Below, piece after piece: positions 3,001 to 6,000 of a stretch of DNA of 9,825 nucleotides; within the stretch, counting starts at the first letter, position 1; every line of letters begins with the position of its first letter. Where the stretch lies: IMG/VR virus record IMGVR_UViG_2695420874_000001, positions 1 to 9,825 of that record; one strand, given 5' to 3'. Source of the DNA: a virus (lineage: Duplodnaviria; Heunggongvirae; Uroviricota; Caudoviricetes). Made by a program: the position numbers.

Positions 3001-6000
3001 GAATATTATTTACAGGTAAATGGAGTGGGGCGCATGGATAGAAATATTACAATAGAGTATGAAGTATATGCCCGTATTGTATGGGCAGAGAAGGCAAAAA
3101 CACGGTAATTCCGTGTGTTGCCATGATACCTGATTGGCAGAATAGTTGTTTGGTTTTGAGTATATAGTCAGCGTTTTTTGTTCAGTAATTGCCCCCTCAA
3201 AAAATAATAAAATAAGGTGATTATTTTTGTTTATTATTTAGTTTTTTTTGTGTGTTATTTTATTGTTTTTGCGTGGTTTGTTTTTTATTGTTATTTCATT
3301 AAGGGAAGGTAAATTCAGGATGGCAGTCTGTAGATAATCGGAGGTCACTTATGCTACATGATCACGTGGCAGAATGTCTGGAGAAAAAAGGACTGTACCG
3401 GAGAGCAGCTGAACGATGGGCAAAAGTGATGGTACAGCTAAGTGATGACCAGAAAAGAAAAGTGGCGGCACAGAAACGAGCAGAGTGTTTGCGTAAGGCG
3501 CGCCGGACTCCGGTTTCACCGGTGAACCTGACCGAAATAAAACAAGCGGTCAACAGACTACATTCTGAGTTGGGAATGGGATTTGAAGAGCGGCGGGTAT
3601 TCCGACGATATAAAGGGACAGGAGAACAGAATACGTCCGGAAACGCGCGGTCAAAAAAATGCTAAAAAATATCTGAGAGAGTTATTGCCTGTTACCATAA
3701 GAAAAAGCGACTTTAGTGGTCGCTTTTTGTGTCATATATAAGTCGTTTAAGTAAACCTGTCTGAACAGGTGCTCTGGTCGTGTTTGTCTTTGTTGGGTAC
3801 AAATTGAGAATATTTTTCATTAATTAATCTTCTTCTGCAGGCTTCAATAACCCACGCTGAAAAATTACCTGAACCTTTCAGGTCAAGAGCGATGTTAATT
3901 TGTTCAATTATCTGGTTTGGAAATCGGATGTTGCGGGTTGTTGTTCTGCGGGTTCTGTTCTTTGATGACATAATGTTGCCCCGTATTCAGTGTTGCTGAT
4001 TTGTATTATCTGAAGTTGCTTTTACGCTAATTTGATGCAGATCAATTAATACGATACCTGCGTAATAATTGATTATTTCTCGTGGTTTGATGGCGTACAC
4101 ACATGTCGTGATAAACCTCATGTAGATGATAATTATTATCATTTTCGTGGGTCCTTTCCGGCGATCCGACAGGTTACGGGGCGGCGACCTCGCGGGTTTT
4201 CGCTATTTATGAAAATTTTCCGGGATCCATGTCCGGTTTCTCTTCAAGTTAACTATATGAAAAATATAAAAACAGGTCTTCTGTGAACCGGACATGAACA
4301 AAAAACAGACATGTAAACCGGACATGACCGGTTTTGTTGTGATTGTGAGGTGAGAGTTTTTGCGAGGTGAGGAGTGGCTACGCAGACTGAAGTTGCCAGG
4401 CATTTAAGTCTGACCGATCGCCAGCTTCGCAGATTGCAGAAATTGCCGGGTGCCCCGATATCGAATAAGCGAGGGCAACTGGATCTGGATGCCTGGCGCG
4501 ATTTTTACATATCGTATCTGAGGAGAAGTAAAAACGATGTGCCTGATGGCGATAGCGAAGACGACTATGAGGAGAAATTGCTTATTGCCAGATGGGAACT
4601 GACAGCAGAACAGGCTGTTACACAGCAGTTAAAAAATGAGGTGTCAAAAGGAAAACTTATTGACACCGGGTTCTGTATTTTTGCCCTCAGTAAGCTGGCA
4701 ATGGCGTTATCCAGTACGCTTGATTCCATCCCTTTATCCATGCAGCGACAGTTTCCTGATTTAACACCGCGCCATCTTGACCATCTGAAAACCCTTATTG
4801 CTAAGGGGGCAAATCAGTGTGCGCGGGCAGGGGATAAATTACCGGATTTACTCGATGAATATATCAGAGCAACAACTGAATAATATGATGGCTGCCGTTT
4901 CGGTTGCGCTGCAGCCTCTGGTCAGGGTTGTACCAATGACGGCAGTTGAATGGGCTGATCAAAATTATTATCTGCCTAAAGAATCTTCATATGGTGAGGG
5001 AGAATGGAAAACGCTGCCATTCCAGATCGCCATTATGAACTGTATGGGTAACGACCAGGTTCGCACGGTTAACCTGATTAAATCTGCCCGTGTTGGCTAT
5101 ACAAAGATGTTGCTGGGGGTGGTCGGGTATTTTATTGAGCATAAATCCCGAAACAGTCTGCTTTTTCAGCCCACGGATTCTGCCGCTGAAGATTTTATGA
5201 AGTCTCACGTGGAGGCGACGATTCGGAACGTGCCATGCCTGAAAGACCTTTCCCCATGGCTGGGTCGTAAACATCGTGACAATACTCTCACGCTGAAACG
5301 CTTTTCATCGGGCGTCGGTTTCTGGTGCCTGGGCGGCGCTGCCGCCAAAAACTACCGTGAAAAATCCGTGGACGTGGTCTGCTATGACGAACTTTCCTCG
5401 TTCGAGCCGGATGTCGAAAAAGAGGGGTCGCCAACCCTGCTGGGGGATAAACGTATCGAGGGCTCTGTATGGCCAAAATCCATTCGCGGCTCGACGCCTA
5501 AAATCAAAGGCTCCTGCCAGATCGAAAAAGCCGCTAACGAGTCGGCACATTTCATGCGTTTTTACGTGCCCTGTCCGCACTGTGGGGAGGCGCAGTATCT
5601 GAAATTTGGCGATGATGCCTCGCCTTTCGGTCTTAAGTGGGAGAAGAATAAGCCAGAAAGTGTTTTCTACCTTTGTGAGCATCATGGCTGTGTGATCCAT
5701 CAGTCTGAGCTTGACCAGAGTAACGGGTGGTGGATCTGTGAAAACACGGGCATGTGGACCCGTGACGGCCTGATGTTTTTCAGCGCCCGGGGGGATGAAA
5801 TTCCGCCGCCGCGCTCCATCACTTTCCATATCTGGACGGCGTACAGTCCGTTCACCACCTGGGTACAGATTGTCTATGACTGGCTGGATGCACTGAAAGA
5901 TCCCAACGGTCTGAAAACCTTTGTGAACACCACGCTGGGCGAGACCTGGGAAGAGGCCGTGGGCGAAAAACTCGATCACCAGGTACTGATGGATAAGGTG

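Follow-up and report, generated by a model that had tools for sequence, protein, structure and literature searches.

A YlcI/YnfO-family gene with a putative FNR-dependent promoter at the cos boundary of a lambdoid Escherichia coli prophage

What do the palindromes upstream of a small, solitary gene beside a phage cos site belong to: the protein that the gene encodes, the packaging machinery, or neither? The question is raised by a lambdoid Escherichia coli prophage in IMG/VR virus record IMGVR_UViG_2695420874_000001 (positions 1 to 9,825; Caudoviricetes), a stretch of 9,825 nt that we call the window and whose coordinates are used throughout unless lambda (NC_001416) is named. A preliminary description had read a 74-amino-acid (aa) open reading frame (ORF) in this stretch as a stand-alone ribbon-helix-helix (RHH) protein, had listed two palindromes upstream of it, and had left its role undecided between autoregulator, packaging accessory and orphan antitoxin. 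Our analysis suggests, with a probability of roughly 70%, that the ORF is the coding part of a self-contained, FNR-controlled cassette (promoter, gene and terminator) of the YlcI/YnfO type, that its product is a probable RHH regulator, and that the two listed palindromes are unlikely to be its operators.

The gene and its putative FNR promoter

The cassette consists of the following features:

3747-3971, minus strand: YlcI/YnfO-family (DUF3950) gene, 74 aa (ORF call; Pfam, NCBIfam and PHROG matches)
4032-4045, no strand assigned: consensus FNR box TTGAT-GCAG-ATCAA, i.e. TTGATGCAGATCAA, at -74 to -61 from the ATG; 10/10 match to TTGATnnnnATCAA
4005-4010, minus strand: predicted -10 hexamer GATAAT, at -39 to -34 from the ATG and 21 nt past the FNR box; implied start at about 3998
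3702-3728, no strand assigned: two-way intrinsic terminator hairpin, AAAAAGCGAC-N7-GTCGCTTTTT, a perfect 10-nt inverted repeat between the convergent PerC-like and YlcI-like genes

First, the repeat at 4032-4045 coincides with a binding site of the host oxygen sensor FNR. It had been described as a perfect palindrome, which it is not, as its 5-bp arms enclose a non-symmetric 4-nt centre; it is an exact copy of the FNR consensus, TTGATnnnnATCAA (Myers et al., 2013; PMC3688515, a study cited here from excerpts of its text and tables). In these excerpts, peaks from FNR chromatin immunoprecipitation sequencing (ChIP-seq) are listed in all data sets on the identical 14-mer at both ylcI/nohB and nohA/ynfO (Tables S5 and S6), so that binding of FNR to this sequence in vivo has been shown for the E. 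coli K-12 copies. The K-12 sites predicted there read TTGATGCAGATCAA and its complement with a PatSer ln p of -15.83, above the other entries in the excerpts, both are recorded without nucleoid-protein masking, and ylcI is given as the estimated FNR target of the divergent ylcI/nohB pair (PMC3688515). K-12 YlcI (prophage DLP12) and YnfO (Qin) and the corresponding ORF of lambda belong to the same DUF3950/NF041551 family as the window protein, are likewise divergent from a Nu1 homologue across cos, and share the upstream DNA of its gene, with an identical FNR 14-mer and the Fur box. The window protein differs from them in its C-terminal tail past about residue 50 and in its length (74 aa versus 64 and 77 aa), and the window differs from lambda in having a PerC-like gene as the downstream neighbour instead of lambda genes.

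Second, the box would occupy the position expected of a class II FNR-dependent promoter. Activated FNR promoters carry it at -40.5 to -42.5, the class II position of most activated promoters (PMC3688515, Table 1), and in the window its centre lies about 40.5-41.5 nt upstream of the predicted start, in a promoter without a -35 element. The box would thus replace the -35 element, with GATAAT 21 nt downstream, which is the layout of dmsA, narG and ydfZ, where a TTGATnnnnATCAA box stands in place of the -35 and the -10 hexamer follows after 21-22 nt. A perfect FNR box at exactly -74 is present in 66 of 78 related prophage loci (close relatives, and therefore not independent), followed at the same spacing by GATAAT in 38 and GACAAT in 28. 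Homologues from further afield keep it with a different centre in upstream DNA that is otherwise dissimilar to that of the window: TTGAT-TCAG-ATCAA at -76 with TAAAGT 21 nt after it in Salmonella (protein 53% identical over the matched segment), and TTGAT-ATAA-ATCAA at -76 with GAAAGT 22 nt after it in Citrobacter (44% over the matched segment). Three lambda-type cos phages that do not carry the DUF3950 gene (PhiR12_4, PhiR47_2 and Stx1_1649) do not carry the box either. Because the box goes with the gene and is missing from these gene-less phages, it belongs to the gene cassette: 4032-4045 is an FNR site of the gene's own promoter, not of cos. We infer that FNR activates this gene; under anaerobiosis, binding of FNR to the box would switch the gene on or at least modulate it. 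In lambda (48.5 kb) the exact consensus occurs only twice; one copy is this box and the other, TTGATTTTTATCAA, lies at lambda 34261-34274, at the ral/orf28 junction in the pL operon.

Third, the gene is followed by a terminator of its own and is therefore monocistronic. The minus-strand RNA of the hairpin at 3702-3728 folds with -12.3 kcal/mol (z = -3.6) and runs into the U stretch UUUUUCUU; a consensus terminator scan did not list it, its T run being consumed by A/T pairs. The proposed cassette would lie on the strand opposite to the late operon, in the interval from the lysis genes to cos, and would in this respect resemble lambda morons such as bor, which are self-contained opposite-strand units in the late region that are present or absent among similar phages. 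It differs from bor in that it codes for a putative DNA-binding protein and not for an envelope protein.

The ORF itself is real and belongs to a catalogued but uncharacterised family. It matches Pfam PF13132 (DUF3950; 1.3e-17, 63.8 bits against a cut-off of 25), NCBIfam NF041551 (YlcI_YnfO_N; 34.5 bits against a cut-off of 30) and phrog_949 (6.4e-31), and identical copies carry the RefSeq name 'YlcI/YnfO family protein'. Its lambda counterpart (lambda 48303-48109, minus strand, 64 aa) is identical to K-12 YlcI (UniProt YLCI_ECOLI), and the phage 434 record lists the ORF under DUF3950; 'orf206b', at one point considered as the name of the lambda ORF, was dropped, since it denotes another gene (lambda 20147-20767). 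The family is narrow, with 638 relatives found in one search and, in another, 101 clusters at 50% identity (matches at E <= 0.001 among 1.84 billion representative proteins), and across Enterobacterales its core is kept at identities as low as about 37%. A piece made up of the promoter and the 5' part of the ORF was found in 3407 of the 5426 complete E. coli genomes, in up to 12 copies per genome. The preliminary description was thus right in treating the ORF as a conserved gene, convergent (3747-3971, minus strand) with the PerC-like gene at 3351-3665. We consider it very improbable that the ORF has no protein product and that its conservation merely reflects DNA-level constraint near cos. 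The lambda RefSeq record (NC_001416) does leave the ORF without annotation, and no proteomic or ribosome-profiling evidence for a product was found in the literature, but the protein core is 37-57% identical in unrelated DNA contexts and in many genera, curated Pfam and NCBIfam families exist, and Stx phages keep the ORF while the DNA upstream of it is replaced. Literature searches returned no paper on the function of the YlcI/YnfO family. Apparent DUF3950 members in Streptomyces, Cohnella, Pseudomonas, Flavobacterium, S. aureus and others come from contigs with lengths near 3.5 or 48.5 kb and at least 89% identity to lambda, often with frameshift noise, and from their sequences these look like lambda control DNA carried into assemblies.

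If this reading is right, lambda and most E. coli lambdoid prophages bear, at the edge of cos, a regulator cassette that responds to oxygen and has so far been overlooked, which would offer an entry point to how prophages sense gut conditions. As a finding about the window alone it is ordinary, as the gene already has a RefSeq name and the two repeats that are informative correspond to FNR and Fur sites known from the literature.

The protein, its satellite homologues and the question of operators

In the conserved core of the family (residues about 10-50) a basic arm leads into the strand motif (R/K)-N/G-I-R-F-P, after which come two helices joined by a G-S-G-N-F-S turn; the C-terminal tail that follows is variable. 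In the window protein this gives the strand-helix-helix pattern TRNIRFP, helix, GSGNFS, second helix, which aligns in register with P22 Arc (NIRFP with NLRWP, and GSGNFS with GRSVNS). Like Arc and Mnt of P22, the protein is small and has an N-terminal arm, an N-x-R-(F/W)-P strand motif, two helices and a G-x-S/N turn. AlphaFold monomer models contain two confident helices (19-32 and 34/37-55; predicted local distance difference test, pLDDT, 86-91), residues 8-17 are strand-like in the first model, and Foldseek with that model placed NikR and Arc as the top two hits (E = 2 and 7). On the strength of this pattern and of the models, an RHH fold seems probable. The product would be a small, probably dimeric DNA-binding protein with a basic arm, a predicted strand at about residues 12-17 (TRNIRF) and helices at 19-32 and 37-55.

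What such a protein might do is suggested mainly by its homologues in P4-like satellites, which are 37-50% identical and occur in Serratia, Xenorhabdus, Pectobacterium, Proteus and others. There the gene is flanked by integrase/AlpA on one side and by the primase operon on the other and runs in the opposite direction, and upstream of it are three 14-bp boxes of the form GGTG-N6-CACC, at -100, -77 and -31, the last of which overlaps a -10-like TATAGT. Within one element the centres of these boxes resemble each other; from element to element they vary, and strand residues 12-14 of the protein vary with them (TKG, YKG, TKK, KKH, KKN). This arrangement is the layout of a switch repressor and is the best indirect evidence for DNA binding through the N-terminal strand; the matched box arrays at a divergent promoter are a further likeness to Arc and Mnt. 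By analogy with these satellites, the window protein would most likely be a transcription regulator, and the DUF3950 gene is a candidate master repressor of P4-like satellites. TTGAT-N4-ATCAA, GGTGT-N4-ACACC and ATGGT-N4-ACCAT were considered as covarying operators of the family, an idea that may hold for the satellite boxes. In a few satellites a DUF3950 N-terminus is joined to the DNA-binding N-terminal portion of a small terminase (TerS) of the Terminase_2 type, giving proteins of 123-142 aa; examples are a locus with the fusion at 4714-5103 (L005) and another at 8001-8429 (L006), the latter inserted among the late genes of a prophage.

Several results weigh against the favoured reading. 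With regard to the promoter, in the excerpts of the FNR study no FNR-dependent change of expression is reported at the ylcI/ynfO sites in glucose minimal medium, the one condition covered (PMC3688515), so that FNR activation of the gene is unproven; in this, and in having a start that is only predicted, the window departs from the known class II promoters. A simple sigma-70 consensus scan found no promoter here, which is expected for class II and yet gives no positive support. As for the fold, the similarity to Arc is of low probability against single sequences and reaches 12% (P = 0.0025) in hhalign against the Arc-family profile; the two AlphaFold models disagree on residues 8-17, with residues 8-14 helical in the second; Foldseek with this second model returned unrelated chains only and no RHH match; none of 32 family members scanned matched a Pfam RHH family; and sequence and profile searches of the PDB with the protein gave no match. 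The label 'RHH' of the preliminary description is therefore backed by the sequence pattern, the two confident helices and the weak in-register match to Arc, and is not backed by significant profile or fold similarity to a known RHH family (Arc/MetJ/CopG). Finally, no operator of the protein was found at the window locus, which together with the missing profile similarity and the missing Pfam Arc/RHH match sets it apart from Arc and Mnt, and lambda-type and HNH-type upstream regions of the gene have no 7-mer in common.

The last of these points concerns Stx phages with an HNH gene, TerS and TerL (HK97-like packaging), in which a protein 92-97% identical to that of the window is encoded after the lysis genes, antisense, with only 41 bp between its gene and the HNH gene. 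As the same protein thus stands behind unrelated upstream DNA, the repeats of the window are not its obligatory partners.

This observation bears directly on the alternative that the repeats at 4032-4045 and 4064-4077 are operators through which the RHH protein represses its own promoter. RHH repressors such as Arc, Mnt and CopG commonly autoregulate through short inverted or tandem repeats, and the 207-nt upstream stretch is indeed enriched in such elements: it holds five inverted repeats with arms of at least 5 bp where 1.2 are expected from dinucleotide shuffles (P about 0.02), those with arms of at least 6 bp are also commoner than in the shuffles (P about 0.01), and a span of 60 nt contains four copies of the half-site TTGAT/ATCAA (4032, 4041, 4069 and 4087; P about 0.001 against shuffles), the densest cluster in both the whole window and the whole lambda genome. 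Perfect 5-N4-5 palindromes are found in 10 of 20 independent DUF3950 upstream groups against 3.2 expected, the box arrays of the satellite homologues overlap the -10-like TATAGT, and competition between the protein and FNR for one site is conceivable. On the other hand, 4032-4045 is the exact consensus of a regulator that occupies it in vivo, the class of homologues with TTGAT-N4-ATCAA is explained by FNR and not by the sequence of the protein's strand, the near-identical protein of the Stx phages does without any 7-mer of this DNA, and boxes of the satellite type (GTG-N6-CAC) are absent from the window. We had ourselves entertained TTGAT-N4-ATCAA as a covarying operator of the family and dropped it on recognising the FNR consensus and its ChIP support. 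Taken together, we regard operators at these two repeats as unlikely; autoregulation as such, one of the roles proposed earlier, is possible, with no evidence for it at the window locus.

The FNR-controlled cassette that we favour leaves the second listed palindrome without an assignment:

4064-4077, no strand assigned: inverted repeat AATAAT-TG-ATTATT, part of a 13-nt inverted repeat (4041-4053 / 4061-4073)

This repeat is as previously described, with 6-bp arms and a 2-nt gap, and lambda retains it as 5+2+5. It contains the FNR half-site TTGAT at 4069, is missing from the lambda-type cos phages without the gene, and is not a Fur box, because it matches the Fur consensus at 10 of 19 positions only. 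Inspection by eye of 4030-4095 revealed no good match to the IHF consensus, and Rfam gave no match in the region.

Fur box, cos and the packaging alternative

On the other side of these repeats lie the elements that belong to cos and the packaging genes:

4122-4146, no strand assigned: Fur box cluster, including the palindrome 4126-4142 and overlapping matches, on the cos/nu1 side
4149-4155, plus strand: cosQ, GGGTCCT, packaging termination subsite, homologous to the cosQ feature of the phage 434 record OL657227
4179-4190, plus strand: cosN, 12-nt cohesive-end sequence GGGCGGCGACCT; the right ends of lambda and 434 stop at the base equivalent to 4178
4374-4883, plus strand: small terminase subunit, Nu1 family (Pfam Phage_Nu1, 1e-18), divergent from the YlcI-like gene across cos

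At cos the DNA is nicked to the right of 4178, and between 3972 and 4178 the identity to the right ends of lambda and phage 434 is about 93%, in agreement with the earlier statement that the upstream stretch is lambda right-end DNA. The strongest repeat in it, ATGATAAT-T-ATTATCAT at 4126-4142 with 8-bp arms, had not been listed. Compared with GATAATGATAATCATTATC, the consensus of the host iron sensor Fur, the window has its best match at 4128-4146 (17/19) and another at 4122 (15/19), and the lambda counterpart (16/19) is the best in lambda. Strong Fur clusters have been reported at nohB (579,824) and nohA (1,634,624), with a Fur gel shift for the nohA site and in-vivo titration for the nohA/nohB sites (Chen et al., 2007; PMC2189734). 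They lie about 95 bp from the FNR sites, the same distance as in the window, and 4122-4146, with its 17/19 match, is the same element; by this sequence correspondence, the palindrome at 4126-4142 is the published nohA/nohB Fur box. In the three gene-less phages a Fur-like box is kept at 15-16/19, at -51/-49 from cosN, and since it is retained with cos where the gene is missing, we assign it to the cos/nu1 side. These phages retain only this Fur-box stretch, from about 4128 on, and 4032-4077 is missing from them together with all DNA to the left of about 25 bp before cosQ. The proposal that the two listed palindromes might be cos-proximal architecture and not RHH operators hence had the right outcome for the wrong reason: 4032-4045 belongs to the promoter of the gene, and the palindrome that does lie on the cos side is the Fur box.

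The same comparison speaks to the possibility that the protein is a DNA-packaging accessory acting at or near cos and that its upstream DNA is an extension of the cos architecture. It is in keeping with such a role that the gene stands at the same point immediately ahead of the packaging genes whether these are Nu1/A with lambda cos or the unrelated set of HNH, TerS and TerL, that a few satellite members are fused to the N-terminal domain of TerS (Terminase_2), and that the region from the 5' part of the ORF through the upstream DNA to cosN is a conserved island between diverged flanks. PhiR12_4, PhiR47_2 and Stx1_1649, however, do without the gene and the DNA outward of about 25 bp left of cosQ, and cos is defined as cosQ, cosN and cosB (PMC9026076). 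In addition, homologues are found away from any packaging genes, in the switch regions of satellites, beside sopB and in the vicinity of cyd genes, and the window prophage has kept the cassette intact after losing most of its terminase and head genes. The packaging role suggested earlier is weakened by those homologues in satellite switches, next to sopB and at chromosomal sites, and we hold it to be decidedly unlikely.

The window's cosB (4228-4334) and its Nu1 are of another type than those of lambda. Its cosB carries repeats of CATGTCCGGTTT / AAACCGGACATG at 4228-4239, 4286-4296, 4315-4326 and 4323-4334, likely binding sites for the prophage's own Nu1-type small terminase, and this Nu1 is 47% identical to that of loci with a lambda-type cosB (e.g. 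L007). A 51-aa minus-strand ORF at 3987-4142 matches phrog_9395 (1.6e-35) and spans the FNR and Fur boxes in conserved non-coding DNA; the ORF is probably spurious, and phrog_9395 a database family that was derived from it.

Other family members and the prophage setting

Outside phages and satellites, a 56-aa member of the family lies between sopB (IpgD family) and pipD (Peptidase_C69) in all Salmonella subspecies and in S. bongori. Its FNR-type box is the TTGAT-TCAG-ATCAA at -76 mentioned above. The gene has the position of 'orfX' of Salmonella pathogenicity island 5 (SPI-5) and may be that gene; orfX has been reported to be up 3-fold in a dksA mutant and to be needed for gut colonisation. 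A literature search for STM1092 together with FNR found no paper. In Rouxiella and Pantoea, chromosomal members immediately follow genes for cytochrome bd (cydB) or cydDC-like transporters, which again connects the family with low-oxygen physiology. The satellite and Salmonella homologues would give the DUF3950 family its first functional hypothesis.

None of the satellite, Salmonella or cyd-adjacent members has a toxin-like partner, and in the window the ORF has no co-directional neighbour. These neighbourhoods bear on the remaining proposal, that the protein is an RHH antitoxin orphaned by the loss of its toxin. An antitoxin would fit the small size, the core that resembles RHH proteins and the weak similarity to HicB-like antitoxins in PHROG (E = 0.0099), but no co-directional adjacent partner was found in any of the roughly 20 independent contexts (lambda, 434, Stx phages, satellites, Salmonella, Citrobacter and others), the gene has its own terminator, and the downstream neighbour is different in every lineage. 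The flanks in relatives thus confirm the earlier remark that no toxin partner is adjacent and give no support to the antitoxin role, which we think hardly credible.

Beyond the FNR-controlled cassette itself, we note as a long shot that YlcI/YnfO proteins might be small RHH switch regulators common to lambdoid phages and P4-like satellites, with the phage gene wired to FNR beside a Fur-controlled cos promoter. If this were true, gut-like anaerobiosis would trigger a regulator that restrains read-through of the late operon into the packaging genes or, alternatively, one that engages in cross-talk with satellites in which a homologue, in some cases fused to a terminase DNA-binding domain, serves as the master switch.

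The 2 kb around the ORF are 100% identical to chromosomes such as CP114128. The gene order in the window is a P21-type holin, lysozyme, Rz, the PerC-family gene (Pfam PerC, 3.8e-44), the ORF on the opposite strand, cos and Nu1, and to the right of Nu1 follow a large-terminase gene fused to tail gene K, tail gene I, sodC and genes for NleB-/NleC-type effectors. At 4798-6570 the gpA ATPase and half of the nuclease domain are joined in frame to the NlpC/P60 tail protein K; the head genes and most of the tail genes have therefore been deleted, and the prophage is defective and cannot package DNA. Its cargo comprises the PerC-family (Pch-like) regulator gene at 3351-3665 and the NleB-/NleC-type type III effector genes at 8462-9766.

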